Shown piece by piece: positions 9,250 to 36,180 of a DNA stretch of 64,000 nucleotides. Both the position numbers and the translations under genes were made by a program. The DNA comes from Minisyncoccota bacterium (lineage in GTDB: Bacteria; Patescibacteriota; Minisyncoccia; Minisyncoccales; CG1-02-41-26), in NCBI GenBank assembly GCA_028718785.1, contig JAQULB010000004.1:2525-66524 (forward strand), in the 5' to 3' direction. The notes under the pieces were generated by a model. That model ran no database searches. It was not told where the DNA came from and saw only the letters and a list, made by a program, of their open reading frames with translations. Within the stretch, counting starts at the first letter, position 1. The number at the start of each line of letters is the position of its first letter.

Positions 9250-9389
9250 ATGCCCCTTTTTGCCCCAAAATGCCCGCTCACGCCACGATTCAGAGGCATA
9301 GGGAGCTTAAGTAGTAGGTAGATACTACTTTGGACAAACGGTTGCCGAACCCCTTGCCTGTAAGCATAGGAAAAGGCAAAAAAGGGCAT
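9250..9389. other. GC-enriched structured island (candidate ncRNA or palindromic-element remnant)
   Basis: The 15-bp inverted repeat ATGCCCCTTTTTGCC (9250-9264) / GGCAAAAAAGGGCAT (9375-9389) encloses the hairpin AAGTAGTA-ggtaga-TACTACTT. It also encloses a half-copy of the GGCAACC palindrome, ACGGTTGCCG at 9338-9347. Confidence 0.3.
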
Positions 9390-19989: not shown

Positions 19990-22900
19990 TTATTCCTGTT
20001 CGTTGTTGGTAAATTGGCAGATATCTTTGAAATCGCAGAACTGGCAGTGAAAACCCGGGGTGGCCTTAAAGTTGCTTTTATATATTTTTTCAATTGTTTG
20101 GATAATTTCATCTTTTAATTTTTGTTTTTCTTGCTCTGTGCCCAAAAAGCTTATTTTTTCTCCGCTTTCTAAATAATAGTAAGCCAATTCAACTGGATTT
20201 AATTTTAGGTTTTCTTCTGTTGCTATTTGATAAAGCAAAAGCTGGGTCTTATCATCCTTTTCTAATTTATCTTTCTTTTTTCCAGTTTTGTAATCGATAA
20301 GACACACGCCCCCGCCCGCATCGCTACGCGAGCAAGCACTCGCTTGCGAAGCGTTGCGGGCAGGCCCATTAACTTCATCAATGCGGTCAATTTTTCCAAT
20401 CAAGGTGTATTTACCCGCTTTTAAGCGAAAACTTACCTCTAAAGCCAGTTTATCGTTTATTTTTAAAATTTTAGGAGGATTTTTTACAAAATCATCATAA
20501 AAGTTTTTTAAAATCTCTTTGCCTAATTTTTTGTATTCCTCTTTTTGGGCTTTGCTTTCATACCACTCTCCTATCCAATTCTTTTCATAAATCCCCGCCA
20601 AATCCTCAAAACCCGCGGCAACCCGGTTGCCGTGGGTTTCAAAGGCAAAGAGGGATTCTTGGGTTTTGTCGGCTGTTTGGAAATAACTACGCAAGAAATC
20701 ATCTAATGTTTTATGCAAGGTTTTACCAAACGAGAAACTGGCCTTTCCTTTAATGGGTATTTTTAAGATGTGGGCTAATTTGTATTGATAGGGGCATTTA
20801 TTAAAAGCTGTTAATTGGGTGTATGAAAAATGGTCGGGAATAGACCATTTTTCAATATTTAACTCTATGGGTTCTTTGGCTGGCTCGTCTATTTGCTGGG
20901 CTTGTTTTCCTTTGCTTTTTGGCAAGGGTTTTTGGGCCAAGCCAAGCTCCACTAAGAAAAGCGAGGGTTTTTTGCTGGTTTTACCCCCGTAATTTGAGGC
21001 CGAGGTTAAAAATAAACCCTGCTTGGCTCTGGTCATGGCCACATAAAAAAGCCGGCGTTCTTCTTGCAAATGAATATCCCCCTCCCCGGCTTGTTCTTTA
21101 ACAAGCGGTTCTGGAATTTCAATGGCATCTTTTCTTTCAATTGAAGGAAACCGCTTATCAACCATACTAACCACGAAAACATATTTAAATTCTAAGCCCT
21201 TAGCTGAGTGAACAGTCATTATTTTGATTGTGTCAGGGCCTTGGTCAATATCAAACTCCATTTTACCTTGCTCTCCGCTTTCAATTTCCAAAGTTAATTG
21301 GGCTAAAAAATTTTTTAGCGATGGATCAATTGACGCTTCTTTAAAACCCTGTATTTTTTTGTAAAACTGACTCAAAAAATCAATTTCCAGCAATTTATCT
21401 TTTTCAACCAAATATTTTAAAAAGCCCGAGTTATTTAAAAAAGCTACAAAAATTTCCCCAACTGATTTGGTTTTTGCCATTTCAGTATGGCGGGTTATTA
21501 AAGAAAGTAAAAAGGTAATTTTATTTAAAGTTTCGTGAGTTATGCCTTTTACAACTGAAATCTTAGACAATGTTTCATAAACCGACTGAGAGCGCTTGTG
21601 GCTTTCTTGAGTGATAAGCATTATGTCTTTAATATCTATACTTAAAAATGGTAAAGACAAAACTCGATAAAGCGCTAAACTTTCGTGGTAATTATCTAAT
21701 AGTTTTAAATAAGAAATAACATCTAAAATAATTGGCTTTTGAAAAAGCCCCCGCGAGGCCAAAAATTGATATTGTAATCCAGCCCTGTCTAAAGCCAAAG
21801 CAAACGGCACAGCTGAATCATTGGCTCTTACTAAAATTGCAAAATCGCTAAGCTTGGTGTCTGGTTCTTTTTCTAAAATTAAAACAATAGTGTTAGCTGT
21901 CTCTTTGGCTTCTTCGTTAAGCGATTTAAAATGCAAATATTTAACAAAACTTGGCTGTGATTTTTGAGCTTGAAGTTTTTTGTCTATTTTGGAAATAAAC
22001 TCCAATCTATTGGGATTGTTGGCTTGGATAAATTTGTATGACAAATCCAAAACCTCTTGCCCAGACCTATAATTTTTAACTAAACAAATTTCTTTGGCTT
22101 GTGGAAAATCCCGCTTAAACTGTTTTATATTGCTAACTGATGCGCCCCTCCATTTATAGATTGAATTATGAACAACAATTCCATTAGCAAAAAAATTATG
22201 AGTTTTATCAACCTCTAAATCATAAACTGCAATATTTTTATTTTCCTCTTTAATCTCGACAATCTCATCGTAAATAATTTCTCGACCTTGCCTAACAGGT
22301 AAATAATGGCCTAAAACTAAATTTTTAGCTGGTATAACTATTGCGGGGTAACTTCTGGGTCGATCGCTATCCTTCAAAGGATGTTGCAACGCTATATTAA
22401 ATTTTGTTTCCACAATTCCTTCTGTTAAATTTTCGAGTTGCTTGGCTATTTTGCCAATTTCTTGAAAATCCACATTTTCAATTCTAAGCTTCATACCGTT
22501 TTTGGCCTTTAAAAGATTGTATTTTGCTTTTTTTAGCTTCTCTATCGTTGCTTTATCTGAAGTTTCTAAACTTAGAACATGCTTTATAGCAGGGTTAAGT
22601 AAAAATTGTTTTTCTTTTTTTCTAATAATATCTCTGCTACGATAATTTCGGTGGCACATTCTTATATTAATTTTAATTCTCACCTTATTACCCCTATTAA
22701 CGGCATCAAGGGCAAAATGATGAGCGCTTAAATCAATATTTAAATCTTGGGATAGCCGAGCAATATTTTTATCCACTGTTAAATCTCGATAAAGTTTAGA
22801 CAGTAATTCATCTTTAATAACTATATTCTTGCGAACCTGAAAACAGCTGGTTGGTATGCCATACTTTAACGACCATAATGTTTCGTGATATCGTGCTTCT

Positions 22901-24090
22901 ATTTCAGTATTAAACGCCTTAATTGCTAAAATTTTATCAGCTGAACGCTCTAATCTTATTCTAATAATTAATGCATTGGTTACTCCTATCCTCCAGCCAA
23001 TGTCTTGCCTGTGCATTAAATAAACATAGTAAAATTTTTTACTATTATGAGTTTGGGGCACGAAACAAAACATTTTATGGTTATCTGTAGTTTGAACTTC
23101 AAAACCTTTTTTTGTTTTGATAGTTATTAGCATTGCTTGCTTCTTTTTTTTCGAAACTTTAAGTACTTTTGAAACCCCAATGTGCCCCTTACCCACAGCA
23201 GTTAAAACTTCATCACCCACCTTTATGTTCTTAATTGATTTTTTACCTTGAAATGTAGAAACTAAAACATCACCAGGAAGACACTGGTCATCGTCGGCTG
23301 TAACTGTTAAGTTATTTTTTGGCTGGGCTAATAGTTTTATAAGTTCGTATTGGGCTTTGTTTGTGTCTTGAAATTCATCAAGCAAAATATATTTAAATTT
23401 TTCTCTGTATTTTTGCAAAATAGCTGGCCGTTTCTGGAACAATTGCAAACAATAGTTTATTAAATCGCCAAAATCCAAAAAATTATTTTCTAATAATAAT
23501 TGCTGGTAGGCGTGATAGGCCTGAGCCACCTCCCCCACTCTGACCTCTTCACTATCCTCTATTAACTCATCTAATGATGTTTTTAATGAATCCGCATAAT
23601 CTAAATATTCTTTTGGGTAAATCATTTGATCTTTGCATTTTGAAAAATGGTCAAGCAAGGCCCTGATAAACTTATTGGGATTACCCAATGGTTTGTAATA
23701 TTTTAAGTTAAGGTTTTCTAAATTTTGTCGCATTAAAAGCCAGGCGCCCGTTTGATCTAAAAGTTTAAAATCAGGCAGGCCAATATCCAAACCATTTTCT
23801 TTTAAAATTCGCTCAGCAAAACTATGAAAAGTGGAAACCCAAATATCGCTATAGCCAAAATCCATTTCCCTGTCCACCCGCTCTTCCATTTCTAAAGCCG
23901 CTTTTTCGGTGAAAGTTAAAGCCAAAATTTCCTCGGGCTTAGCTAACTCTTTTTCTATTAAATAAGCAATGCGATCGGTGATAACTCGAGTTTTTCCCGT
24001 GCCAGCTCCCGCCACAATTAAAAGCGGGCCATCTTGATGCATAACCGCCTGTTTTTGTTCTGGGTTTAGTTTTTGCAAATCAACTACCAT
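19990..24090 (-). CDS. UvrD/PcrA-type helicase fused to a C-terminal Cas4-like PD-(D/E)XK nuclease; interrupted by an intein
   Basis: Walker A is AGAGTGKT, with DEFQDT and then TADDDQ|intein|SIYKWRGA (motif III). The C-terminal part has GKIDRID...IDYKTG and a 4-Cys set (KCPY...HCQFCDFKDIC). Confidence 0.9.
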   Translation of the reverse strand: MVVDLQKLNPEQKQAVMHQDGPLLIVAGAGTGKTRVITDRIAYLIEKELAKPEEILALTFTEKAALEMEERVDREMDFGYSDIWVSTFHSFAERILKENGLDIGLPDFKLLDQTGAWLLMRQNLENLNLKYYKPLGNPNKFIRALLDHFSKCKDQMIYPKEYLDYADSLKTSLDELIEDSEEVRVGEVAQAYHAYQQLLLENNFLDFGDLINYCLQLFQKRPAILQKYREKFKYILLDEFQDTNKAQYELIKLLAQPKNNLTVTADDDQCLPGDVLVSTFQGKKSIKNIKVGDEVLTAVGKGHIGVSKVLKVSKKKKQAMLITIKTKKGFEVQTTDNHKMFCFVPQTHNSKKFYYVYLMHRQDIGWRIGVTNALIIRIRLERSADKILAIKAFNTEIEARYHETLWSLKYGIPTSCFQVRKNIVIKDELLSKLYRDLTVDKNIARLSQDLNIDLSAHHFALDAVNRGNKVRIKINIRMCHRNYRSRDIIRKKEKQFLLNPAIKHVLSLETSDKATIEKLKKAKYNLLKAKNGMKLRIENVDFQEIGKIAKQLENLTEGIVETKFNIALQHPLKDSDRPRSYPAIVIPAKNLVLGHYLPVRQGREIIYDEIVEIKEENKNIAVYDLEVDKTHNFFANGIVVHNSIYKWRGASVSNIKQFKRDFPQAKEICLVKNYRSGQEVLDLSYKFIQANNPNRLEFISKIDKKLQAQKSQPSFVKYLHFKSLNEEAKETANTIVLILEKEPDTKLSDFAILVRANDSAVPFALALDRAGLQYQFLASRGLFQKPIILDVISYLKLLDNYHESLALYRVLSLPFLSIDIKDIMLITQESHKRSQSVYETLSKISVVKGITHETLNKITFLLSLITRHTEMAKTKSVGEIFVAFLNNSGFLKYLVEKDKLLEIDFLSQFYKKIQGFKEASIDPSLKNFLAQLTLEIESGEQGKMEFDIDQGPDTIKIMTVHSAKGLEFKYVFVVSMVDKRFPSIERKDAIEIPEPLVKEQAGEGDIHLQEERRLFYVAMTRAKQGLFLTSASNYGGKTSKKPSLFLVELGLAQKPLPKSKGKQAQQIDEPAKEPIELNIEKWSIPDHFSYTQLTAFNKCPYQYKLAHILKIPIKGKASFSFGKTLHKTLDDFLRSYFQTADKTQESLFAFETHGNRVAAGFEDLAGIYEKNWIGEWYESKAQKEEYKKLGKEILKNFYDDFVKNPPKILKINDKLALEVSFRLKAGKYTLIGKIDRIDEVNGPARNASQASACSRSDAGGGVCLIDYKTGKKKDKLEKDDKTQLLLYQIATEENLKLNPVELAYYYLESGEKISFLGTEQEKQKLKDEIIQTIEKIYKSNFKATPGFHCQFCDFKDICQFTNNEQE
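20305..20367. repeat. GC-rich palindromic insertion, in frame inside the helicase nuclease domain
   Basis: The sequence is CCCCCGCCCGCA-TCGCTACGC-GAGCAAGCactcGCTTGC..-TGCGGGCAGGCCC. It reads NGPARNASQASACSRSDAGGG, between the GKIDRID and IDYK motifs. Confidence 0.65.
20611..20641. repeat. REP-like palindrome AAACCCG-CGGCAACCCGGTTGCCG-TGGGTTT inside the helicase ORF
   Basis: The same 17-nt core, CGGCAACCCGGTTGCCG, occurs at 35931-35947 and 36162-36178. Here it is read as HGNRVAAGF. Confidence 0.7.
22165..23283 (-). other. Intein (373 aa) in helicase motif III, with a GIY-YIG-like central domain
   Basis: The N-terminal junction is DDDQ|CLPGDVLV, block B is TTDNH, and the C-terminal junction is HNFFANGIVVHN|S. 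Both boundaries were checked at nucleotide level (TGT at 23283-23281, AAT at 22167-22165). Confidence 0.85.
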
Positions 24091-24321
24091 ATCTTTATGG
24101 CAATTATGCCATTAAGCAAGTTTTGTTGCAATGAAAAACCCTCTTATTCTATAAATGTAGAAAGAGGGTCCATATAAGGGAGGTTAATAACCACCCATTA
24201 TCTACTGTGTTATCTTTAACACAGTAGGAAAAAATTTAGCTCCACAAGAAGAGCGAGATGACGCGGGGTAGTACCCCGCAAAACAACAACCACAACGATT
24301 TTTAAAAGAAGATTACTCTTT

Positions 24322-24371
24322 CTTGCGGAGCGGTTTAAGGAAAATTACTTTTCCCCAAAACGCTCCGCAAG
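24322..24371. repeat. Long hairpin H1 (paralogue of H2)
   Basis: CTTGCGGAGCG-[28 nt, itself self-complementary around GGAAAATTACTTTTCC]-CGCTCCGCAAG. Confidence 0.55.
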
Positions 24372-24454
24372 AATTTAATGCTGGTTTAAATATATCAAAC
24401 TTTAAAAATTTCGTCAAGCTTTTTGCGCAAAATAAAAAACTTTTGTAAAAGAAA

Positions 24455-24488
24455 GGCCCCCTCCTTATTGGGGCCATAAAATTTTTTT
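24455..24488 (+). terminator. Intrinsic terminator on the plus strand
   Basis: GGCCCC-ctccttatt-GGGGCC followed by ATAAAATTTTTTT. Confidence 0.5.
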
Positions 24489-24661
24489 AGCTTCCTGTTT
24501 ATAAACAAAAAAACAAAAAACCATAGAAGCTTCAAACTTTTTCTGCCATTTTTATAATAATTATGGTCTTTCTCCGGCCAAAAGCGCGGGAAAAAAGAAC
24601 CACTTTTAAAGCAGAAGGTTTTTATGCTTCCATACAGAGTAACGAATTGCTCCATTTTTCA

Positions 24662-24707
24662 TATGGAGCGCTTTGGAGAAAATTATTTTTCCCCAAGGCG
24701 CTCCATA
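24662..24707. repeat. Long hairpin H2 (paralogue of H1)
   Basis: TATGGAGCGC-[..GGAGAAAATTATTTTTCCCC..]-GCGCTCCATA. The basal stem differs from H1 on both arms in a compensatory way. Confidence 0.55.
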
Positions 24708-24778
24708 AAATTTGGAGCTATGTAATAAAGAGCAAATATACTCAAATCCTATCAAAAACTATTTTTTTGTCAATAGTT

Positions 24779-25390
24779 TTAAGCAATCATTTCTTTTATT
24801 TTCATTCTAACAATTTTTTCGCTTCTTTCTTGCTCGTCAAGCTTTGAGGTGATAAATTTTATTTTTCTTTTTGTTTCAGGAATAATAACATACTCTAAAG
24901 CATTAACGCGCCTTCTGGTTTTTTCAATTTCATAAGATAACAACCGACAAGAATGTTCGTTGCCAGCCAAATCTATCATTAACTCTAAAGCGTCCCAAAA
25001 ACTATTTAAACTTTCCCCCATTCCCAAAGGCGAAGAAAAATCAGAGTAACATTTAACATCTCCTCCAATAAAGCGCTGAAATTTTGGTATCCAAACGCTC
25101 ATTATATTTTGAGTTTTAACATCTATGCTTATTTTTGAGGAAGGCAAAGAAAACATTTCTTCCACCTCCCCAGAAAACATATTTGATGTTGATAAAACAA
25201 ATTTTTTTGAAGCAAAAGAAAGCTTTTCCTCTAAAAGGTTTCTTTGGGACTTTGTTTGCCTGATAATTTCCATAAACTTTTTCATTAAGCCGTCCCGTTT
25301 TTCTTTTAAAAGTTTATAGCCCCTTTGAGCGGTTTTTGCCTGGCGCTTTAATTTTAAAAGCTCCATTCTTGTTGCTTTGATATTTTCCAT
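24779..25390 (-). CDS. atpD: A/V-type ATP synthase subunit D
   Basis: MENIKATRMELLKLKRQAKTAQRGYKLLKEKRD is the canonical subunit D N-terminus. It is the last gene of the operon. Confidence 0.9.
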   Translation of the reverse strand: MENIKATRMELLKLKRQAKTAQRGYKLLKEKRDGLMKKFMEIIRQTKSQRNLLEEKLSFASKKFVLSTSNMFSGEVEEMFSLPSSKISIDVKTQNIMSVWIPKFQRFIGGDVKCYSDFSSPLGMGESLNSFWDALELMIDLAGNEHSCRLLSYEIEKTRRRVNALEYVIIPETKRKIKFITSKLDEQERSEKIVRMKIKEMIA

Positions 25391-25527
25391 GTTAGAAATT
25401 TTTAATTGAACGGCGAATTTATGAGTCGTGAAATTTAAAAGTTCTTACACCCCGTTAAATAATTTTAAATTAGTAAATTTAAAATTAAAATTTGTACTCA
25501 AATTTTATTTAACAGGGTAAATTCGTA

Positions 25528-26940
25528 CTAAACTCGCTCTTCGCCCTTCGGGCTTGAACTCATTAAGTACTTATTTATGTGTTCCTCTTTCAATCTCTTC
25601 ATTTCTTCTTTTGGCAATATGCCAATTAGTTCCCAGCCCAAATCTAATGTTTGCTGGATTGTTCTGTCTTCTGTGTAGTTTTGATTAACAAACTTTTGTT
25701 CAAAATCATCAGCAAACTTTAAGTATTTTTTATCCACATCAGTTAAAGCTGACTCCCCTAAAATTAAAGCTAACTCTCTTACTTCTCTGCCTCGAGCGTA
25801 AAAAGCAAACAATTGGTTTAAAACTCCAGAATGGTCTTCTCTGGTTTTTTTATCGCCAATGCCCTTGTCTTTTAACCGAGATAAAGACGGTAAAACATCA
25901 ATGGGAGGATAAATATTCTTTTTGTGCAAGTCCCGAGAAAGCAAAATTTGCCCCTCGGTGATATACCCAGATAAATCAGGAATTGGGTGGGTGATATCAT
26001 CTTCTGGCATTGTTAAAATGGGAATTTGGGTGATAGAACCCTTTTTATTTTTTATTCTGCCCGCTCTTTCATAAATAGTGGCCAAGTCAGTATATAAGTA
26101 TCCCGGATATCCCCTTCTTCCCGGCACTTCTTTTCGGGCTGCTGACACTTCTCTTAAGGCCTCGCAGTAATTTGTCATATCAGTTAAAACCACCAAAACC
26201 TGCATATCTTTTTCAAAAGCCAAAAACTCAGCGGCTGTTAAAGCGATCCTGGGCAGTGTAATTCTTTCCACCACTGGATCGCTAGCTAGGTTAATAAACA
26301 CCACCGCTTTTTCTAATGCCCCTGTTTTTTTAAACTCATCAATAAAAAATTGGGCTTCTTCAAAAGTAATTCCCATGGCTCCAAAAACCACAGAAAATTT
26401 TTCAACTTCCCCTTTTTCGTTTTTTGTTAAAACCTTGGCTTGCCTGGCAATTTGAGAAGCCACCATAGCATGAGGAAGTCCAGCCGCTGAAAATATTGGC
26501 AGTTTTTGTCCTCTTACTAAAGTATTTAAACCATCAATAGTGGAAATGCCTGTTTGAATAAAATCATTGGGATATTCTCTTGAATAGGGGTTGATTGGAG
26601 AGCCGTTAACATCTAAATATTTTTCAGCTATAATTTCTGGCCCGCCATCTTTTGGTTTGCCGGCGCCATCAAAAATTCGCCCAACCATATCGCTTGACAC
26701 CCCAAGCTTCATTGTTTTAGCTAAAAATTTGGCTTTTGAGCCCTTTAAATTTAATCCTCTAATATCTTCAAACACCTGAATAATAGCTGTGGTTTCGTTT
26801 GCTTCTAAAACCCGGCCTCTTTTTATTTGACCATCCTGCATTTCAATTTCCACCATTTCCTCATACTTTATATTTTCCACTCCACCAACCACCACCAATG
26901 GCCCAGCTGCCTCTGTAATTGTTTTGTATGTCTTTAACAT
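25528..26940 (-). CDS. atpB: A/V-type ATP synthase subunit B
   Basis: 470 aa, the non-catalytic B-type sequence ([29 protein letters not shown]). Confidence 0.95.
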
Positions 26941-26949
26941 ATATTTTAT

Positions 26950-28704
26950 TTAAACAATTTGTTCTATTTCTTTATTAAGCAAAACAAATTGCTCTATTTC
27001 TTCTTCTTTAATAAGCTTCATTCTTGAGACCTTTTCCTTTAAACTATTTGTTAAAATATCTTTGGCTAATTTTCCCTGACTGATAGCTTGTTCTCCTTTA
27101 ATAAAAATATCAACAATTGTTTTCACCATTAAGTATTGCTTTTTTAAAGAAGTAAAAGAATCCACATCAGTAAAAGCGTTTTGATGTAAAAAGTCCTCCC
27201 TGATAATGCGAGCAATTTCAAGTAAAAACTGGTCTTTTTGAGACAAGGCCTCAATGCCAACCAACCGAACAATTTCTTGAAGCTCGGCTTCTTTTTGCAA
27301 AATAGCCATTGCTTTTTTTCTAAATTCAGTAAAGTTTTCTCCGCCTTGCTTGTCAAAAAATTCTTTTAAATTGTCTTCGTATAAAGAATAGCTGTTGAGC
27401 CAATTAATAGCTGGAAAATGTCGTTTATAAGCTAACGAGGCATCTAAGGCCCAAAAGACCTTTGTAACCCTTAAAGTATTTTGGGTTACTGGCTCTGATA
27501 AATCCCCACCCGGAGGAGAAACCGCTCCCACAACTGTTAAAAACCCCTCTCTTTTGTCTTGCCCCAAACATTGCGTGTAGCCAGCTCTTTCATAAAAGGC
27601 CGCTGTTCGAGAGCCAAGATATGCTGGGTAGCCCTCGTCCCCGGGCATTTCTTCCAATCTTCCGGAAATTTCTCTTAACGCCTCTGCCCACCTTGAAGTG
27701 GAATCAGCTAATAAAACCACCGAGTATCCCATATCGCGAAAATATTCAGCAATGGTTATGCCTGTGTAAACCGATGCCTCTCGAGCAGCCACAGGCATAT
27801 TTGAAGTATTGGCCACCAAAACTGTTCTTTCCATTAAGGGTCGGCCGGTTTTGGGGTCGTTTAATTCAGGAAACTCCATTAACAAATCAGTCATTTCGTT
27901 TCCCCTTTCTCCACAGCCCACAAAAATAATTACATCAGCATCAGACCATTTTGCCAATTGGTGCTGAACAACTGTTTTCCCGCTGCCAAACGGCCCTGGC
28001 ACACAGCCCGCCCCGCCTTTGGCAATTGGAAAAAACATATCAATAACCCTTTGTCCTGTTATCAACCCCAAAGATGGGGTTAATTTTTTGGCAATTGGTC
28101 TGGCGTTTCTAATGGGCCATTTATGACTCAAGCATACCTCTATTTTTTTGCCATTTTCATCTTTTATTTCAGCAATTACTTCAGAAACAGTATAGTCCCC
28201 TTTTGGAGCAATTGAAGTTATGGTTCCTTTGTTAAAAACAGGAGGAGCCATAATTTTATGAGTTAAAAGTTCGGTTTCTTTTACCTCGCCCAAAATATCT
28301 CCGGCTTCAATCTCGTCGCCTTGTTTTTTAAGGGGAGTAAGGGTCCATTTTTTGTTTGCGTCTAACGCCAAACACTCAATTCCCCGAGCAATAAACTCGC
28401 CTGATTTTTTGGCTAAATCTTTTAGAGGTCTTTGAATGCCATCGTAAATATTGGAAATTAACCCAGGACCCAATTCAACAGTTAAGGGATTTCCTGTTAA
28501 ATAAACTGGCTCTCCCGGGCCAATGCCTGATGTTTCTTCATATACCTGAATATAAACATCGTTGTTTTTTATCCTAATTACTTCTCCAATGATTTTTTCA
28601 TTGCCCACTTTTACCACCTCATACATTTGAGCTTCAGAGAGTCCGTTGGCCACCACTAAGGGGCCAGCCACCTTAATAATTTTTCCTGTTTTTTCTTCTG
28701 CCAT
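26950..28704 (-). CDS. atpA: A/V-type ATP synthase catalytic subunit A
   Basis: 584 aa with Walker A GPFGSGKTV and GERGNEM. It includes the non-homologous insert typical of A subunits. Confidence 0.95.
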   Translation of the reverse strand: MAEEKTGKIIKVAGPLVVANGLSEAQMYEVVKVGNEKIIGEVIRIKNNDVYIQVYEETSGIGPGEPVYLTGNPLTVELGPGLISNIYDGIQRPLKDLAKKSGEFIARGIECLALDANKKWTLTPLKKQGDEIEAGDILGEVKETELLTHKIMAPPVFNKGTITSIAPKGDYTVSEVIAEIKDENGKKIEVCLSHKWPIRNARPIAKKLTPSLGLITGQRVIDMFFPIAKGGAGCVPGPFGSGKTVVQHQLAKWSDADVIIFVGCGERGNEMTDLLMEFPELNDPKTGRPLMERTVLVANTSNMPVAAREASVYTGITIAEYFRDMGYSVVLLADSTSRWAEALREISGRLEEMPGDEGYPAYLGSRTAAFYERAGYTQCLGQDKREGFLTVVGAVSPPGGDLSEPVTQNTLRVTKVFWALDASLAYKRHFPAINWLNSYSLYEDNLKEFFDKQGGENFTEFRKKAMAILQKEAELQEIVRLVGIEALSQKDQFLLEIARIIREDFLHQNAFTDVDSFTSLKKQYLMVKTIVDIFIKGEQAISQGKLAKDILTNSLKEKVSRMKLIKEEEIEQFVLLNKEIEQIV

Positions 28705-28716
28705 ATATTTAATAAA

Positions 28717-29028
28717 TTAATTTATAAAGCTTTCGCTTCCCAACGCCCTTTCTAATATTTTTTTTAGCCCCTCTTTGGCTTTTCCAGAGTCCTTATTAAT
28801 CCCTGGAATAACCAAACAAGCTGGCAAAGTTTCTTGAAAAAGATTGCTAATTTCTTTGTCAAAATTTTGGGCAATATCTTCGTTGATTAATAAAATAGCT
28901 AAGTCCTTTTCTTTAATCGCTTTTATTTGCAAAAGCAATTCTTCTTTATTGGAAACACCAAAAGTTTCAACGCCCAAAGCGCCAAAAGCCAAAACTGATT
29001 TGTTATCTCCTAATATTCCAATTTTCAT
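28717..29028 (-). CDS. atpF: A/V-type ATP synthase subunit F
   Basis: 103 aa starting MKIGILGD...GF.ALG, in the operon position between C and A. Confidence 0.8.
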   Translation of the reverse strand: MKIGILGDNKSVLAFGALGVETFGVSNKEELLLQIKAIKEKDLAILLINEDIAQNFDKEISNLFQETLPACLVIPGINKDSGKAKEGLKKILERALGSESFIN

Positions 29029-29036
29029 AAGTAAAT

Positions 29037-30041
29037 TTAAGCAATAGGCAATAGCGCTCCCTCAATATCTTGCACAGACAGCCCATTCTCTTTAGCAAAT
29101 AAAATCAATCTTATGTTAGCGTAACTGTTCATTTTCTTTTGAAAAAAAGCCAAAACTTTTTCAATACCACTCCCCCTTTCTTTTTCTTTTTGAAAAACTT
29201 TTTTAGCAATATACCCATCGAGTTTTCTTTCAAGTAAAATATCAACAGCTCCCCCCTCCGTTCCTTCAAGTAAAAAACCAAGTTCTAATGTTTCTAAAAA
29301 CCTTTTTAAATTAGCGCTTGATTCCTCTTCCTTGCCAATCGACAGTCCTTTAATTTGAGAAATGGTCAAATTTCCTCCCTCTAAAAAATCTTGATTGTTA
29401 TTGCCTAAAAGATTTCTTAAATTAGCTAAATCCATTTCCAAACGAGTCATCTCCCCTAAAGATTTTTCTCTTTTTGCTAAAATTGTTTTTATCTTAAAGT
29501 AAGCTGTGTCAACCGATTTTTCAATAATTTGAGATCCAATATCTTGACCATCTTTTTTATATCTGCTTATAGTTTTTACCGCCTCCAAAATTAATTGTTC
29601 AACATAAATGTTAGAAAGTTTTTCTGTGACGCCATCGCGATTATTTCCTTCAAGAAGAATTTTTAAAAAAGATTCCTCTTTAGCGTATGGTTGAAGAGAA
29701 CACTCAAAGGGCCTAAATTTTTTTATTTCTTGCTTAAAAAAATATCTTTTAAGCATATCTTTTATATTTAAAGCGTCAAACTTTAAAAACAAAAAGCTTG
29801 CCAATAATTCATTATCATCTAAAACTTTAGTTAGTTTAGATTTTAAAGCAACAAGGTCTTGTAAAATAACATCCTCAATATTTTTTTGAGAATCTGTGAC
29901 AATAATCTCGCTAAAATCTGTGTCAAACAAAACCATAAAAGCGCTTGCTTTGTCTGGGGACTTAAGCATTCTTTCTTGGTCAAGGTTGCTTAAAACCTTT
30001 TTTTCCCAAACATTTATAACCCCTGTGGCAAATTCATACAT
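29037..30041 (-). CDS. atpC: A/V-type ATP synthase subunit C (d-type)
   Basis: 334 aa, helical, in the operon position between E and F. Confidence 0.75.
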   Translation of the reverse strand: MYEFATGVINVWEKKVLSNLDQERMLKSPDKASAFMVLFDTDFSEIIVTDSQKNIEDVILQDLVALKSKLTKVLDDNELLASFLFLKFDALNIKDMLKRYFFKQEIKKFRPFECSLQPYAKEESFLKILLEGNNRDGVTEKLSNIYVEQLILEAVKTISRYKKDGQDIGSQIIEKSVDTAYFKIKTILAKREKSLGEMTRLEMDLANLRNLLGNNNQDFLEGGNLTISQIKGLSIGKEEESSANLKRFLETLELGFLLEGTEGGAVDILLERKLDGYIAKKVFQKEKERGSGIEKVLAFFQKKMNSYANIRLILFAKENGLSVQDIEGALLPIA

Positions 30042-30046
30042 ATTCT

Positions 30047-30604
30047 TTACGCAAAAAGCATTTTAATTAATTCTGGGTTGGCTGTTTCTTGTAATTGAAA
30101 AATAAGCTGAGAAATTCTCAAATCTATTTCAATGTCATGAGACACAAACATAAAGCCCTCTTCTTTCAAGGCGTTTTCCACTTTTACTTCCTTATCCACA
30201 ATTCCTTCCAACGCTTTGGCTGTTCTTTCACCTGCCTTAATATGCCCCTTCTTGTCTTTGGGCAAAAACAAAGCCATATGCTTTATCAATTTTTTAAACT
30301 CTGCGTCATTAAGAGAAGAAACTTTTTCTTGGGCTTTGCGATAAATATCTTTAATAAGCTTATTTTTTTCTTCCTGCATCTTAAAGTTTAACTCTGTTTG
30401 CAGATTTTTTTCAAATTCCTCAATTTCTTTAGCTGCTTTCCTTAAAGCCATTTCTTTTTGTTCCTCCTGCTTTTTACCAACAGCCAAATTGTATTCTTTT
30501 TCCAAAACCAAAACATCTTCTTTGTTCTTTTTAAGAATTTCTTGAATTTGGCTTTCGGCCTTTTCTTCAATTGATTTTAAAATATCATTAACCATATTAA
30601 ACAC
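30047..30604 (-). CDS. atpE: A/V-type ATP synthase subunit E
   Basis: 185 aa with a long N-terminal charged coiled-coil and a globular C-terminus. It sits after K in the operon. Confidence 0.8.
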   Translation of the reverse strand: MFNMVNDILKSIEEKAESQIQEILKKNKEDVLVLEKEYNLAVGKKQEEQKEMALRKAAKEIEEFEKNLQTELNFKMQEEKNKLIKDIYRKAQEKVSSLNDAEFKKLIKHMALFLPKDKKGHIKAGERTAKALEGIVDKEVKVENALKEEGFMFVSHDIEIDLRISQLIFQLQETANPELIKMLFA

Positions 30605-31067
30605 TTATGCCTTGTATTAACAAAATAGTAGCCAATAAACCCAAAACAGCGTAAGTTTCCACCATAGCAGCCATAATAACGCCTTTTCCAGCGTCTTGTG
30701 GTTGTTTAACTAAAATATTCATTCCAGAAACCGAAACCTTTGCCTGATACAAAGCTGAAATAATTCCATTAACAGCAACTGGCAAACAAGCCGCAAAAAT
30801 CATTAATCCAGTTTGCCAAGAAATATCTGGCATATTGCCGCTTAAAAGCCCAAGCTTGATAATAACCCAAAAAGTTCCAATAAACCCATAAATACCCTGA
30901 GTTGATGGCAATGCTTGAAGCAATAAGACCTTTCCAAATTTTTCTGGCTCTTCTGAAACCACCCCCGAACCAGCTTGTCCAGCTCGGCCCACTCCAATAA
31001 TTGAACCGATGCCAGCTACCGTAACGCACATGGCCGCTCCCGCTATCGCTAAAAATAAACCGATCAT
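30597..31067 (-). CDS. atpK: A/V-type ATP synthase proteolipid subunit K
   Basis: 156 aa, a duplicated hairpin c-subunit (four TM helices, Gly-rich GxGxGxG). Confidence 0.9.
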   Translation of the reverse strand: MIGLFLAIAGAAMCVTVAGIGSIIGVGRAGQAGSGVVSEEPEKFGKVLLLQALPSTQGIYGFIGTFWVIIKLGLLSGNMPDISWQTGLMIFAACLPVAVNGIISALYQAKVSVSGMNILVKQPQDAGKGVIMAAMVETYAVLGLLATILLIQGISV

Positions 31068-31156
31068 ACGATAAATAATTTTTAATTTTTAATTTTTAAT
31101 TTTTAAAACGCTAAAAAATTGAAAACTAAAATAATTAAAAATTTAATAAATTAACT

Positions 31157-33079
31157 TTATTGAATTCGACTATATTTTAATTCTGCTTTAATGGGATTAA
31201 ATCTTTTGCCTCCTCCTTCTAAAAATTTGGGGAAGAACTCCACAAATTGCAATCTTCCCGAATGAATAAAAGCCCCCAAAGCGTTAATCCCCAAATTAAA
31301 TATGTGCCCGCCAATTAAAACCAAACCAGTTAAAATCCATCCCACATAAGGCACCATTCCTCCCAACAAAAAAGCTATTTGATTAACGATTAAAGCTATA
31401 ACAGCTGTGGACAAGCCCAAAGCCACCAACCTGGAATAAGACAAAACATCAGACATTGTGCCAATAATTCCCTGCAAAATTTTTATAGACCCAACCAAGG
31501 GCTTTAAAAATATTTTCTGGCCAAACGACTCCCCTATCAACAGAAATCCAACAGATAAAACCAAGAATACAGTGGCTATAGTTTGCGCTTGAGGAACCTT
31601 TACTTTAGACAGAGCAAAAATAATTAAAGCAATGTAAAATATCAGCCAAGCCAAACCGTTAATAAACATTTCTTTGTTTTTTCCTCTTTTTCCAGTAATC
31701 ATTTTAATAATCTGAGCAAAAGCTACTTGTAAATATCCAATACCAAAAGACAAACCCATAAACAAAATAGTATCCTCTATGGGGTCAATCATTTTCAATC
31801 TATACAAAAACGGAAATTTTTGCAAAGTTTGAGTGGTTGAGCCAAAGTAGCTTCCAAATAAAATTCCCATTATTAAAGTGGAAATTCCTCCATAAAACAA
31901 TAATTGCATAAGCTTGGTGTCGCCAAGTTTATTTTTTAAAAATAACAAAGGTGGCAAGGTGAACACAACCAGCAAAATTCCATACCCAGCGTCAGTTAAA
32001 CAAACCCCGAAAAATATTATAAAAAACAAAGCCAAATAAGGAGTGGGATCTACTTCCCCGGGTTTGGGCATTCCAAAAATTTCAGTAACATATTGGAACG
32101 GCCTAACTAATTTGTGGTTTTCTAAAACAACTCTTGGCTCTTCGCCTTTTCCTGAAGCAACCTCTATTAGGTTAAAGTCCTTAGCAAAAGAGGAAACTTT
32201 CTCTTTTAGATCCTTAACTTCTTTTTCATATCCCCAAAAAACAACATAGTCCAAAATTCCCTTAAAAAGTGTTTTGTTTTTTATTTCCCAATTTATTTTT
32301 TCAATTTCCAAAATATCCCTGTAAATTTTAAATTTCTCAATATCTTTTGCCATTAAAGAAAGCTCTTGACGCAACGCCTTTTCAACTTCTACATTTTCTT
32401 CTACTTTTGCTTGGATATTAACTCTTTCTTGGATTGGGCTTTGCTCAAAGTTATAAGCAATTACTTCGCCCTTTAAAGATTTAAGTCCAAATAAAACTTT
32501 TTCTTTGTTTTCTTTTAACCCAGCGATTAAATAAGTTTCTTTTGCTTGAAGGGTTGCCAATTGTTTTTGAAACAACTTATTTTCTTTTCCAAAAGCGATA
32601 AACTTTTCTTTTTGAGTTTTATAAATAGCCCCTACCAAAAAGAAGGTTGTTTGGGTGTCTTGGGGCTTAAACGACAAGGCATTGAATTTTTCCAATTCAA
32701 TAAGCTTGCTTTGAGCGTCTTTTCCTTCTTTTTTAAGAATGTCAAATTTTTTCTCTATTTTTTCTATTCTTTTGGCTTGCTGAAATATTCTTTCTTGCTC
32801 ACCACCCTCTCTAAAATCGCCACCAATCAAGGCCTTGGAACTTTTGAGTTTTGCTATAAAAGAAAGTTTTTTTGTAAAAGGCGCCAAAAAACCAATGGCA
32901 AAATCCATGGTGGCCAATTTATAACCCGCATTTTGAAGATTTTTTAAAACCTCCTCTTCTTTGGCTTCTTGTTTATTTTCAATTACTTCAAAGGCCCCAG
33001 AATTTGCGATAAAAGCGGATATCTTGTTTCGGCTTTCTTTGGGGAAAGCCAAAATGTATTTTTTAGCTACTTTGAGCAT
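31157..33079 (-). CDS. atpI: A/V-type ATP synthase subunit I (a-type)
   Basis: 640 aa with a soluble N-terminal half and a polytopic C-terminal half containing SYSRLVALGL (conserved Arg). Confidence 0.9.
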   Translation of the reverse strand: MLKVAKKYILAFPKESRNKISAFIANSGAFEVIENKQEAKEEEVLKNLQNAGYKLATMDFAIGFLAPFTKKLSFIAKLKSSKALIGGDFREGGEQERIFQQAKRIEKIEKKFDILKKEGKDAQSKLIELEKFNALSFKPQDTQTTFFLVGAIYKTQKEKFIAFGKENKLFQKQLATLQAKETYLIAGLKENKEKVLFGLKSLKGEVIAYNFEQSPIQERVNIQAKVEENVEVEKALRQELSLMAKDIEKFKIYRDILEIEKINWEIKNKTLFKGILDYVVFWGYEKEVKDLKEKVSSFAKDFNLIEVASGKGEEPRVVLENHKLVRPFQYVTEIFGMPKPGEVDPTPYLALFFIIFFGVCLTDAGYGILLVVFTLPPLLFLKNKLGDTKLMQLLFYGGISTLIMGILFGSYFGSTTQTLQKFPFLYRLKMIDPIEDTILFMGLSFGIGYLQVAFAQIIKMITGKRGKNKEMFINGLAWLIFYIALIIFALSKVKVPQAQTIATVFLVLSVGFLLIGESFGQKIFLKPLVGSIKILQGIIGTMSDVLSYSRLVALGLSTAVIALIVNQIAFLLGGMVPYVGWILTGLVLIGGHIFNLGINALGAFIHSGRLQFVEFFPKFLEGGGKRFNPIKAELKYSRIQ

Positions 33080-33375
33080 AAAGTTTTCTCCACTAAATAT
33101 TCAACTGCCTTACTGGTGTTGCTTTTTTTAATATCTTCTAATTTATCAAGGGCTTTTTGGGTTTTTTCTTGAAAGGACTGCCTAATAATTTCTATCTTTT
33201 TTTCTTTAGCAGACCTAATTTGCGCTTCTTGAGCAGAATCCAAGCAAACCCTTGCTAACTTTTCTGCTAATTGATTTTTTTTATCTTGCAAAATTAAATC
33301 CGCATTTCTTTGGGCTGTTTCAATTTTCTCTTTTACTTCTTGCTCTTTTTGTAAAACTATGGAAAGTTCGTTCAT
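33067..33375 (-). CDS. atpH: A/V-type ATP synthase subunit H/G-like (peripheral stalk)
   Basis: 102-aa all-coiled-coil protein, the first gene of the operon. It overlaps the subunit I start. Confidence 0.6.
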   Translation of the reverse strand: MNELSIVLQKEQEVKEKIETAQRNADLILQDKKNQLAEKLARVCLDSAQEAQIRSAKEKKIEIIRQSFQEKTQKALDKLEDIKKSNTSKAVEYLVEKTLCSK

Positions 33376-33411
33376 AATTTAGGTTTAAGTTTTGGTTTAA
33401 TTTTAAAAATT

Positions 33412-33449
33412 TAAAAACCGCAGTCAAATAGCTGCGGGTTTGCTTTTTA
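33412..33449. terminator. Bidirectional intrinsic terminator between the P-type ATPase gene and the ATPase operon
   Basis: AAAAACCGCAG-tcaaatag-CTGCGGGTTTGCTTTTT. Confidence 0.6.
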
Positions 33450-33514
33450 TAAAAAGCATAGTAAACCGCTCGCCTTAATCTTAATTAAGTTAAAGATTTT
33501 CTTATGATATTTTT

Positions 33515-35410
33515 TTATGGTTGATAAGTCAAGGGTATGGGTCTTGACTTTTTTAAAAAACTTATTCTAAAAACATTAAAAATGGGTAAAAAATCAGTTA
33601 AAAAATTGTATAAAGCAGCTGTCATTGGATTTAAAATCCCTACAAAAACTAAAAACAAGCCAATGGCATTTAATACGCCCCAAAGCCAAAAATTGTGCTT
33701 TATAATTTTAACTGCCTGCTGGCTAAAATCAATAATTTGAGGCACCTTTTTTAAATCATCTTTCATTAAGGCAACGTCTGAGGCCTCAATGGAAGCGTCG
33801 CTTCCTCCCTTGCCCATAGCAATACTAACATCAGCTAAAGCCAAAGCAGCCGCGTCATTAACCCCATCCCCCATCATTGCTAAAATCCCTTTGTTTTGTT
33901 TTTTAAAATTTTCAATAAACGCCACTTTGTCTTGGGGTTTTAAGCAGGCCTTAAAATTATCAAAGCCCACTTCTTTCACCACCCTTAAAGCCACCTTTTC
34001 GTTATCGCCAGTGAGCATACACCAAGAAACCACTCCCAATTCCCTGGTTTTTGCCAAAATCTCTCTCGCGTTTGGCCTTAAAGCGTCCTCAAAAGCTAAA
34101 AATCCAACCACCTTTCCATTACACCCGTAAGCTGTAATGCCAAAGCCCATTTGCTTGCTTTTATTAAATATTATTAATTGTTCGTTTGTGGAGGTGAAAC
34201 CGCTTTGCTTTAAAAAATCCCAATTCCCAGCAATTATGTTATCTTTATTTTTTTTAATCACAATCCCCTCGCCCGGTTTTTCTAAAAATTCATCTGGGAG
34301 CTCAATTTTAATATTTCTTCCTTGTAAATATTTTATGGCCGCCTGACTAATTGGATGATGTGAATTAATGCTGGCTATTCCCACAATTCTTAAAAAACTT
34401 TTTTCATCAGTATTGTCAAAAAAATTTACTTGGCTTATTTTTGGTTTGCCATAAGTTAAGGTGCCGGTTTTATCAGTCATAAAATATTTTATTTTAGCCA
34501 AATTTTCTATTACTCCCCCACCCTTCACCAAAACCCCCATTTTAGCAGCTTTAGCAATAGCTAATGTAAACCCCAAGGGCACAGCCACCGCAATATCATC
34601 AGCGCAAGTAACCAATAACACCGATAAAACTAAATTTACATTTTTAAAAAACAAAAATAGCAAAATACCTCCCACCATAGTGGCTATTATATACCAGGTA
34701 GTAAATTTATCAGACATTCTTTCGCTTTGACTTTTTTTGCCGGTTGCTTCTGTGATTAAGGCGATTATTTTTTCCACTGTGCTATCTTTGCCGATTTTTT
34801 CAGCTTTTACCAATAAAGAACCGCTTTCATTTATTGTGGAACTTAAAACCTGTTCGCCTTGCCTTTTTACAATTAACTCGCTTTCACCTGTAATTGTTGC
34901 TTCATTAACAGAGGCTTGCCCAGAAACCACCACCCCATCAATTGGAATCACATCGCCCGACTCAACAACCACCAAATCCCCCACTACTAATTGTTCAGCT
35001 GGTATTTCAATTGTTTGTTCATTTCTTTGCGCCTTAACTTTTTGAGGCCGATATTTTAATAAATGTTCTAAAATATGTTGAGCTTTTCTATCAGTCCATA
35101 AAGCAAATATACGAGCAAAAGCCAACATTAAACTAATAAAAGCTGCTGAATGCCATTCTCTTGCCACAAAAGCAAAAATTAAAGCAATGCTGGCTAATAA
35201 ATCAATAGTGAGCTTTTTTTTAATCAAAGCCACAATAGCGCTTTTTAAAACTGGCAAGAGCCCAATTACTGAAAAAACAATAAAGATTTTCTGGCTAAAC
35301 TCCCAACCCAAAAAATGCAACATTAAAGCCACTCCAATAATTGAAGCTAAAAAAATGTTGAACCACAACCGAAACGAAAAATCATTAATTTTCTCTAAAA
35401 CTTTTTTCAT
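33515..35410 (-). CDS. P-type cation-transporting ATPase (P1B-like, no N-terminal metal-binding domain)
   Basis: Motifs DKTGTLT, TGES and GDGVNDAAAL are present. TM6 reads VTCADDIAV instead of a CPC-type motif. Confidence 0.9.
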   Translation of the reverse strand: MKKVLEKINDFSFRLWFNIFLASIIGVALMLHFLGWEFSQKIFIVFSVIGLLPVLKSAIVALIKKKLTIDLLASIALIFAFVAREWHSAAFISLMLAFARIFALWTDRKAQHILEHLLKYRPQKVKAQRNEQTIEIPAEQLVVGDLVVVESGDVIPIDGVVVSGQASVNEATITGESELIVKRQGEQVLSSTINESGSLLVKAEKIGKDSTVEKIIALITEATGKKSQSERMSDKFTTWYIIATMVGGILLFLFFKNVNLVLSVLLVTCADDIAVAVPLGFTLAIAKAAKMGVLVKGGGVIENLAKIKYFMTDKTGTLTYGKPKISQVNFFDNTDEKSFLRIVGIASINSHHPISQAAIKYLQGRNIKIELPDEFLEKPGEGIVIKKNKDNIIAGNWDFLKQSGFTSTNEQLIIFNKSKQMGFGITAYGCNGKVVGFLAFEDALRPNAREILAKTRELGVVSWCMLTGDNEKVALRVVKEVGFDNFKACLKPQDKVAFIENFKKQNKGILAMMGDGVNDAAALALADVSIAMGKGGSDASIEASDVALMKDDLKKVPQIIDFSQQAVKIIKHNFWLWGVLNAIGLFLVFVGILNPMTAALYNFLTDFLPIFNVFRISFLKKSRPIPLTYQP

Positions 35411-35415
35411 ATTTC

Positions 35416-36147
35416 CTACCCAGAGGCCGGGCCTCTGGATGTTTTTTCCTTATATTGCACCCAATTATCAACAAAATCCTTACACGATTTTTCTCCGCCC
35501 ATAATTTCTGATAAAAATGCTCGTTCTGTTACTGATGGAAAATTTTTCTTTCCCAAATAGTCCTGATAGCTTGACCATTTATAATTTTCTAAAAATTCAA
35601 TAACTTTTTCAATGTTTCTAATCCCATTTTCTTTCCACCCCGGCTCGATTAAAGCAATAGGATTAGTATGAATATAAACAAAAACTGTTTTTAGTTGTTC
35701 GTCATTTTCTATGCGCACCGCCCTAAACCTACCTTGAAAAAAGTATCCTTTATTTTGCAATTGATATTTTTCTTTAAAATAAGAGGCATAACCTGCGCCT
35801 AATTTTTGCATAAATCTACTAATTCCATTATCTTGAACTTGTCGTAAAAGTAAATGCAAATGATTGGGCATGAGGCAAAAAGCTAAGACATCAACAAACC
35901 CATCTCGCTTATCCGGCTCTTCAGCAAATACGGCAACCCGGTTGCCGTATTTTTTCTTGTTTTTCCACTGTCTTCTTTCCTCCCTCCTCCTTCGAATTTC
36001 TACAAAATTTGAATTATTAAATTCGTAAATTGAAAAAATACCCCTGTATTGATCGTTTACATCTTGGAAAAGTAAGCTGTCTCCTATCCTCCTAACAGTA
36101 ACGTGGTAAATCTCCATATTCTCAAGTTGTTCTTTTCTTTTTGGCAT
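35416..36147 (-). CDS. HUH (Y1) transposase of the IS200 / REP-associated (RAYT) type
   Basis: YHVTVRR, LMPNHLHLLL (HUH) and FVYIHTNP (catalytic Tyr motif) are present. The gene is flanked and interrupted by the GGCAACC palindrome. Confidence 0.75.
   Translation of the reverse strand: MPKRKEQLENMEIYHVTVRRIGDSLLFQDVNDQYRGIFSIYEFNNSNFVEIRRRREERRQWKNKKKYGNRVAVFAEEPDKRDGFVDVLAFCLMPNHLHLLLRQVQDNGISRFMQKLGAGYASYFKEKYQLQNKGYFFQGRFRAVRIENDEQLKTVFVYIHTNPIALIEPGWKENGIRNIEKVIEFLENYKWSSYQDYLGKKNFPSVTERAFLSEIMGGEKSCKDFVDNWVQYKEKTSRGPASG
35421..35439. repeat. GC-rich palindrome CCAGAGGCC-G-GGCCTCTGG at the 3' end of the transposase ORF
   Basis: Read directly from the sequence. It encodes the C-terminal tail TSRGPASG and is followed on the plus strand by a T-run. 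Confidence 0.5.
35927..35951. repeat. REP-like palindrome AATACGGCAACCCGGTTGCCGTATT inside the transposase ORF
   Basis: 25-bp perfect palindrome, read as YGNRVAVF. Confidence 0.7.
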
Positions 36148-36159
36148 AGAAATTTAATT

Positions 36160-36180
36160 TACGGCAACCCGGTTGCCGTA
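36160..36180. repeat. REP-like palindrome TACGGCAACCCGGTTGCCGTA, about 12 nt upstream of the transposase start
   Basis: 21-bp perfect palindrome in the transposase/rarA intergenic spacer. Confidence 0.7.

Follow-up and report, generated by a model that had tools for sequence, protein, structure and literature searches.

A RAYT-like Y1 HUH gene of Patescibacteria with matching hairpins before, inside and after its coding sequence

REPtrons, known from yafM of E. coli and from the REP-associated tyrosine transposases (RAYTs) of Pseudomonas (PMC3333891, PMC3116915, PMC6006769), pair a single-copy, vertically inherited class-2 Y1 HUH gene with a GC-rich hairpin family of its own, the repetitive extragenic palindromes (REPs), which flank the gene on both sides. 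Class 2 was defined by the motif Y---NP in the classification of Quentin et al. 2018 (PMC6006769), in which REPtrons were described, in-frame REPs within tnpA-REP genes were reported for subclass 2.4 only, and no REPs were found for subclass 2.1. Di Nocera et al. 2013 (PMC3733652) reported in-frame intragenic REPs as well, many of them in replication and repair genes including those of UvrD/Rep helicases. PMC8266576 describes as poorly understood how RAYTs act on REPs in vivo, why RAYT genes remain flanked by REPs, and how REPs spread. Here we describe a gene for a Y1 HUH tyrosine nuclease, or transposase-like protein, of 243 aa (35416-36147, minus strand; the Y1 gene below), together with its hairpins, in a 64,000-nt stretch of contig JAQULB010000004.1 from a Minisyncoccota bacterium of the Patescibacteria (assembly GCA_028718785.1, positions 2,525 to 66,524 of the forward strand), referred to throughout as the window. 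We regard it as fairly probable that the gene encodes a domesticated, vertically inherited single-stranded DNA nuclease of the RAYT/TnpA-REP class, with the palindromes, arranged as in a REPtron, serving as its cognate hairpins.

The window has a G+C content of about 35%, and sites that carry the 17-mer CGGCAACCCGGTTGCCG therefore stand out as GC islands. As a preliminary description of this DNA had stated, there are three full copies of this core: exactly three exact matches are found in the window, at 20616, 35931 and 36162, whereas 100 dinucleotide-preserving shuffles gave none (0 expected). The first of these to be considered lies in the upstream hairpin, TACGGCAACCCGGTTGCCGTA (36160-36180), which ends 12 nt before the ATG of the Y1 gene at 36147, where it had been placed before, and which stands 6 nt past the stop codon of the upstream mgsA/rarA gene. 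Another lies in frame within the Y1 gene, again as first described, and extends to a perfect 27-nt palindrome, AAATACGGCAACCCGGTTGCCGTATTT (35926-35952), which is read as KYGNRVAVF at codons 66-74. This intragenic site is a variable linker with a basic helix on one side and, on the other, the strand that precedes the HuH motif. The remaining copy forms the core of a palindrome in a helicase-nuclease gene, where it is read in frame as ETHGNRVAAGF; its length of 31 nt and its frame stood up, and its position was corrected to 20609-20639, two bases to the left, with one mispair that is G.T on the plus strand or A.C on the minus strand.

A fourth GC-rich hairpin, CCAGAGGCCGGGCCTCTGG at 35420-35438, is absent from the preliminary description and overlaps the final codons of the Y1 gene (SRGPASG*). 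Its sequence is unlike that of the other window copies, yet it belongs to the same hairpin class, and as CAGAGGCCSGGCCTCTG it is of the family consensus type, the sole site of that type in the window; the GGCAACC arms of the other copies are a derived variant of the family hairpin. All window copies are predicted to form stable hairpins on single-stranded DNA (z of -3.3 to -5.8 versus shuffles). A half-copy that had been proposed at 9338-9347 did not hold up: it is a single arm of 9-10 nt without a partner and is indistinguishable from chance. With both strands considered, the 9-mer CGGCAACCC (0.1 expected) matches nothing but the three full copies, and since the arm at 9338-9347 lacks it, nothing marks that arm as more than chance.

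The unusual part of this locus is invisible from the window alone: throughout the family the intragenic hairpin is conserved, keeps a fixed phase and evolves together with the copies in the flanks. The family was followed in two relatives, L119 and L120, and in 80 further metagenome loci, and the 75 loci with both flanks were used for the sharing counts. Sharing meant a GC-containing 10-mer, on either strand, common to the 150 nt upstream of the gene, the linker or the 3' end, and the rest of the coding sequence (CDS, about 500 nt) served as control. The upstream and downstream regions had such a 10-mer in common in 64 of the 75 loci, the repeat being GC-rich, lineage-specific and usually a palindrome; the linker had one in common with a flank in 60, and all three regions agreed in 45, compared with 3 to 6 loci in which the control had one in common with a flank. 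This test was used in place of a strict detector (perfect arms, GC >= 50%), which undercounted the hairpins and found three sites in 22 of the 75 loci. The layout with three sites, before, inside and after the gene, is family-wide, and the flanking of the gene on both sides by its own GC-rich hairpins (36160-36180 and 35420-35438 in the window) is as in REPtrons. The preliminary description had treated a lack of the palindrome around related transposase genes as telling against it; other members of the family do bear lineage-specific hairpins of the class both around and inside the gene, and the palindrome is tied to the gene.

Positions relative to the gene are regular. Across the family loci, most of which have an upstream hairpin, the median distance from the end of that hairpin to the ATG is 21 nt, and the downstream hairpin starts a median of 3 nt past the stop codon, overlapping the last codons in 15 of 70 loci. 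The linker hairpin is centred on codon 70, and both its slot and its phase are fixed, since in 43 of 48 cases its middle nucleotide occupies position 2 of a codon. In 46 of 78 loci the linker window is where the CDS has its best perfect hairpin, and the linker hairpin exceeds shuffles at z > 3 in 41 of 78. Linker peptides of the homologues (GNRVA, GDPVS, GSPTS, GRAST and GVPDS) are translated GC-rich palindromes. Pooling 173 centred hairpins gave the consensus C-N-G-A-G-G-N-C-N-G-N-C-C-T-C-N-G, in surroundings that are A-rich on the 5' side and T-rich on the 3' side. The Patescibacterial hairpins differ from those of REPtrons in their stems, which are odd palindromes and almost perfect (consensus CNGAGGNCNGNCCTCNG), and in being without the 5' GT[AG]G foot. 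DnaA boxes, considered as partners of the hairpins, were rejected as not general (6 near versus 12 far across all loci). Perfect DnaA-box nonamers, TTATCCACA, adjoin flanking hairpins in three loci only: L184 (75 nt upstream, and 40 and 76 nt downstream), L201 (54 nt upstream and 29 nt downstream) and L157 (78 nt downstream).

The hairpin arms are lineage-specific and agree within a locus. Of 8 arm positions, 3.8 differ between loci and about 1 to 1.5 between sites of the same locus; for loci whose proteins are 70-90% identical the difference is still about 3.2 of 8. Among close relatives, the window has hairpins of GGCAACC type upstream and in the linker and of CAGAGGCC type at the 3' end; L119, whose Y1 protein is 91% identical, has the GGCAACC type at all three sites, the 3' one in its last codons; and L120 (76%) has CGGAGACCCGGTCTCCG upstream and in the linker and the window-type TACGGCAACCCGGTTGCCGTA right after its stop codon. 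The upstream and linker arms are GGAGACC in L120 and L123 and GGCAACC in the window and L119, so that at two sites both arms differ by two changes each, and GGCAACC is already present at the 3' site of L120. The economical reading of these sequences is that a hairpin was replaced by a copy of a neighbouring one between close relatives. Copies within a locus have imperfect arms in common, at times in inverted orientation (L124, L145), and in L184 and L201 they have long outer flanks in common; these shared features argue for copying.

Two paralogous Y1 genes, 2.2 kb apart, occur together in L145 (171-938 and 3147-3914), and each has a hairpin triad of its own without cross-over: AGGTCTGCCCT at 116/142, 368 and 944 for the first, and ATAGACCSGGTCT at 3114, 3354 and 3920 for the second. 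Co-resident paralogues thus keep separate hairpin sets, which excludes a generic genome-wide hairpin or terminator, and which resembles REPtrons, where each paralogue has its own hairpin type and hairpin and gene change together over time. The hairpin of the first L145 copy is a decayed palindrome, with identical imperfections in all its copies.

Copies within a locus also differ in how far their palindromes reach. At least three 'private' paired positions past the point of divergence were seen in 44 of 190 comparisons (23%), against 1.6% by chance, so the palindromes extend outward copy by copy. The same core with different self-complementary outer arms is found at three places in L176 (upstream, downstream and at +2972) and, in the window, at 20609-20639 and 35926-35952. 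We speculate that this outward extension takes place through nick-primed snap-back synthesis or intrastrand repair.

Few hairpins lie anywhere but at the Y1 gene, and some of these rare copies are in frame. Hairpins of the class number 144 within 300 nt of a Y1 gene (101.5 kb) and 16 in the other 511.8 kb, which makes them 45-fold denser at the gene, so that in the DNA sampled they do not behave as classical dispersed REPs. Copies of a locus's own hairpin more than 300 nt from the Y1 gene come to about 5 independent ones in 481 kb of flanks, or about 1 per 100 kb, and the window holds one copy away from the gene; the reading of the palindrome as a dispersed high-copy REP is not supported by these counts. 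In REPtrons, by contrast, the hairpins form a dispersed high-copy family. A scan of genome contigs with RCGGCAACCSGGTTGCCGY gave, among the matches listed, only chance ones in high-GC genomes.

The one dispersed copy in the window lies in a gene for a UvrD/AddA-type helicase fused to a PD-(D/E)XK nuclease and interrupted by an intein (19990-24090, minus strand; Pfam domains UvrD-helicase, UvrD_C, PDDEXK_1, Intein_splicing and Hint). It occupies a loop of the PD-(D/E)XK domain that is hypervariable, and by alignment A2 it is no clean insertion. The closest helicase homologue, in L204 (82% identity), has a different hairpin of the class, AAAAAGGAAGGACAGGCCTTCCTTTTT, at the corresponding position of the loop and in an identical codon phase (centre at position 2). 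Judged from these two sequences, this single case hints that dispersed slots also follow the hairpin of their lineage, and the helicase slot may be older than its present hairpin sequence. Intragenic REPs and Rickettsia palindromic elements (PMC3733652) are likewise short palindromic repeats read through in frame in variable loops; those are abundant genome-wide, whereas the Patescibacterial copies are isolated, and the helicase slot is common to a close relative that has a different hairpin variant. The preliminary description had singled out the in-frame copies within genes, including the transposase gene itself. Both kinds of copy have precedent, since in-frame REPs are reported in RAYT genes of subclass 2.4 (PMC6006769) and in UvrD/Rep-type and other repair genes (PMC3733652).

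The protein itself was recognized from its translation and a match to Pfam Y1_Tnp (E 1e-11). It has the motifs PNHLHLLL and YIHTNP, a HuH pair at H96 and H98, a predicted catalytic tyrosine at Y158, and a C-terminal extension with a KWSSY motif. Across 23 aligned homologues H96, H98, Y158, H160 and N162 are invariant and the spacing from HuH to Tyr is constant (alignment A1), and the Y1 gene carries an intact set of predicted catalytic residues of the RAYT class. All 23 aligned members match the NCBIfam model REP_Tyr_transpos, each below its threshold (best E 3e-15), while the IS200 model is matched by 3 of the 23, weakly (E 1e-4 or weaker). In a Foldseek search with an AlphaFold2 (AF2) model of the protein, used just for the order of secondary structure and for a weak fold match, the top match was 4er8, the RAYT-REP complex of E. 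coli (probability 0.96, E 1e-2). The Y---NP motif, the NCBIfam matches and the 4er8 match bear out the earlier proposal that this is a RAYT-side Y1 HUH protein and not an ordinary IS200/IS605 TnpA. By its sequence, it is a class-2 Y1 HUH protein closest to the RAYTs yet under their curated cut-off, and it differs from REPtron proteins in that respect and in a basic insertion of about 30 aa and a tail of about 80 aa.

The family is large and belongs to hosts of one phylum as far as its members are named. An identical protein is recorded for a metagenome-assembled genome of Candidatus Paceibacterota (Patescibacteria/CPR), and an exact look-up of the protein returned a 918-nt read assembly only. 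At E <= 1e-5 there were 2699 homologues with full-length identities of about 60%, and those that are named come from Pacebacteria, Nealsonbacteria, Staskawiczbacteria and 'Patescibacteria group'. When 1.84 billion cluster representatives were searched with a profile, 370 clusters were recovered at E <= 1e-30 and 6202 at E <= 1e-10. In the PDB, a sequence search returned ISDra2 TnpA as its sole match (E 0.02). A PADLOC search gave no match, and an Rfam search found nothing at the hairpins.

Among described groups, subclass 2.4 (Bertels group 4; PMC6006769) is alike in that the cognate hairpin lies in the nuclease gene, with the frame kept, in a peripheral variable region. Its insertions fall between HuH and Tyr (beta3 to alphaC) and vary in length and sequence, and its REPs are long or 'double-foot' GTAG REPs. 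In the Y1 family, in contrast, the hairpin lies before the HuH (codons 66-74 versus H96-H98), in one fixed slot and phase, and it is detectable in 60 of 75 loci, where it matches the flank copies.

If the RAYT/REPtron reading is right, the Y1 protein would bind the hairpin when it is extruded on single-stranded DNA and would nick and rejoin the strand at the hairpin foot via a phosphotyrosine link, by analogy with E. coli TnpA-REP (4ER8) and with the TnpA proteins of IS608 and ISDra2. That activity, or short-patch conversion or repair provoked by it, could then overwrite one hairpin with another. Such overwriting would keep the three sites alike and would seldom seed copies elsewhere. Coding copies would be expected to survive just in disordered loops and in a phase in which the encoded residues are small and polar (G-[DNE]-[PRQ]-x-[SA]). 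Linker residues 64-82 have a predicted local distance difference test score (pLDDT) below 50 in the AF2 model and are predicted to be disordered, and the linker copy may persist because this modelled segment is disordered and because its phase encodes small polar residues. Given such limits on survival, the intragenic copy would be a site of long standing that has been maintained, and not the outcome of a recent accident. The hairpins may also regulate the Y1 gene.

A bolder reading, which we put forward tentatively and think distinctly less probable, makes the three hairpins working parts: the nuclease would use the sites before, inside and after its gene for a programmed transaction of single-strand DNA or RNA, retained in Patescibacteria as a host function. 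Candidate uses are self-limiting expression, reversible excision, or an active 'homing' replacement that rewrites all sites, including slots in repair genes such as the helicase loop that a relative has as well. Were the hairpins working parts of this kind, the copy-specific outward growth of the palindromes would be the footprint of nick-primed snap-back synthesis.

Several results weigh against placing the system in the RAYT class. The protein scores 49.4 bits against NCBIfam REP_Tyr_transpos, short of the curated equivalog cut-off of 80 bits, and the AF2 model, made from 23 sequences, is weak (pLDDT 59). By its motifs (NH.H, FQ, Y[IV]H.NP, SS tail, about 240 aa) the protein is nearest subclass 2.1, also known as TIRYT or Bertels group 1, for which the motif table of PMC6006769 gives NH.H, FQ, Y[IV]H.NP, an SS tail and 238 aa. 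The likeness, drawn from comparison with the motif table only, extends to a Ser-containing C-terminal extension, and it counts against the RAYT reading because no REPs were found for that subclass. Subclass 2.1 differs from the present family in being reported without REP-like hairpins and in having some members with long terminal inverted repeats. In their position-specific composition the 173 hairpins were conserved just within the stem (C-N-GAGG-N-C / G-N-CCTC-N-G), with no conserved tetranucleotide, and so no GT[AG]G foot, outside it, and the high copy number and genome-wide dispersal that define REPs were not seen in the roughly 0.5 Mb sampled. Ordinary gene conversion between repeats 200-550 bp apart could also produce concerted evolution without any enzyme of this kind.

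It is rather unlikely, in our judgement, that the hairpins act chiefly as RNA, as terminators, attenuators, stabilisers or sites of autoregulation by the protein, so that their likeness would reflect selection for recognition by one protein and not mobility. Such a role would suit the placement of all three sites on one transcript (5' leader, coding region and 3' end), their fixed distances from the start and stop codons, the position of the upstream hairpin directly past the mgsA stop codon and the A-rich 5' and T-rich 3' surroundings of the family hairpins. Terminator-like scores are also raised, with 6 found against 1.2 expected in the region. Other results weigh against it. At the three sites, Watson-Crick pairing holds for about 95-97% of the stem, and the few mispairs show no excess of G.T over A.C in the sense strand (9 versus 12). 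The loop orientation differs among the sites without a rule, the upstream loops being 21 in the same and 10 in the inverted orientation and the downstream loops 16 and 20. This pattern fits a DNA element that is symmetric with respect to the two strands. Unrelated genes contain copies as well, and the imperfect arms and outer flanks in common indicate copying over independent selection. In the window, T-runs follow the linker hairpin (35926-35952) and the 3' hairpin (35420-35438) on the plus strand, which is antisense and not sense to the Y1 gene, and these two hairpins score as terminators of antisense transcription because of those T-runs. The T-run behind the linker hairpin stems from conserved poly-Lys codons. 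An RNA role is compatible with the RAYT/REPtron reading as an additional one.

We consider it improbable, more so than a chief role as RNA, that the gene is an ordinary autonomous IS200-like element whose hairpins are left and right subterminal ends and whose third copy is the chance insertion of a miniature derivative. The unit of hairpin, open reading frame (ORF) and hairpin has the size and layout of IS200 (about 0.8 kb), the neighbours differ among distant lineages, and second copies occur occasionally. IS200, IS608 and ISDra2 are indeed alike in their Y1 HUH fold and in the hairpins adjoining both ends of the gene. Their motif is Y-x3-Q, whereas that of the Y1 family is the class-2 Y---NP; their proteins are core-only (about 150 aa), whereas this one has 243 aa with a tail; and their hairpins are imperfect and subterminal, whereas the palindromes here are perfect. 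No tnpB is present, and as noted the IS200 model is matched weakly and by few members. The 64-kb window has one Y1 gene, as do 77 of 79 loci, each examined over about 20 kb; the second copies are in L145 and L162, and both L145 paralogues are less than 60% identical to the window protein and have different hairpins. The full-length identity of about 60% across Patescibacterial lineages likewise speaks against an autonomous element.

Gene order around the Y1 gene points the same way. The order mgsA, Y1, P-type ATPase is common to the window, L119 and L120, and the identities of the Y1 proteins of L119 and L120 to that of the window (91% and 76%) are close to those of the neighbouring genes (92/81% and 85/76%). 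The comparison of these sequences, over about 20 kb per locus, indicates that the Y1 gene is vertically inherited, with a divergence that matches that of its housekeeping neighbours. The gene mgsA/rarA was rejected as a conserved partner, since it adjoins the Y1 gene in L119 and L120 only; in other loci the neighbours are varied housekeeping genes such as those for LigA, HolA, RNase J, FtsW and MutM. In the relatives an ORF of about 275 aa lies between the Y1 gene and the P-type ATPase gene (regions compared: L119 5100-6010 and L120 10700-11960), and the window is without it. At window 35400-35450 the homology to L119 stops exactly at the 3' hairpin, and the ATPase gene starts 5 nt further on, so a deletion endpoint coincides with a hairpin, as an autonomous IS200-like element might also produce.

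That the intragenic palindrome is kept for its peptide, or is a by-product of codon choice unconnected with the flanking hairpins, draws on the constant reading phase and the loose peptide pattern G-x-[PR]-x-[SA], and it is very improbable and already contradicted, because the peptides vary freely while the stems stay about 95-97% Watson-Crick, the identical sequence recurs in non-coding flanks of the same locus, the linker segment is predicted to be disordered, and the hairpin exceeds shuffles at z > 3 in 41 of 78 loci.

The Y1-hairpin system is a variant of the RAYT/REPtron kind and not a new kind of element. Neither a Patescibacterial RAYT nor an intragenic hairpin in a fixed slot was found described in full-text searches of the literature, and the Patescibacteria, unlike the hosts of described REPtrons, are unmentioned in the 2018 classification paper (PMC6006769). 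What appears to be new is an intragenic hairpin that throughout the family has a fixed phase and changes together with both flanks, the near-confinement of the hairpins to the gene, the lack of a GTAG foot and the host phylum. The family offers a stripped-down case, with a small genome, one enzyme and few sites, three of them fixed on a unit of 0.8 kb. Natural 'swap' experiments exist within it, namely the replacement of GGAGACC by GGCAACC between close relatives and the paralogues with separate hairpin sets. The compactness of the system and these swaps make the specificity code, the copying mechanism and any self-regulation directly testable with short oligonucleotides. In-frame GC-rich hairpins also add to the variation of protein loops in Patescibacteria, which is relevant to annotation and to how 'insertions' in proteins are read.

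Some further features of the window lie outside the Y1 system. The intein of the helicase-nuclease gene (Hint, Intein_splicing) breaks the N-terminal helicase domain between motifs, at about 22165-23304 or residues of about 263-642. A second family of GC-rich, partly palindromic in-frame inserts is found at 20299-20367 in the helicase gene, at 49626-49661 in a RecR-like ORF (49417-50070) and at 54607-54646. These inserts have the sequences TCGCTACGC and GGGCAGGCCC in common and are translated as GPARNASQASACSRSDAGGG in the helicase and as EPLATLGAGPSNE in RecR; most helicase homologues lack the insert, and in the closest one it is shorter or different. Upstream of the helicase gene, two related long hairpins with arms of 21-25 nt lie 340 nt apart, at 24320-24373 and 24662-24707. 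Both contain GGAGCG and end in ..AAAA/TTTTCCCCAA.., and they flank small ORFs; neither matched anything in Rfam or in a tRNA scan. An intergenic stretch at 5676-5790 matches the Rfam LOOT RNA with 77 bits, against a gathering score of 46.

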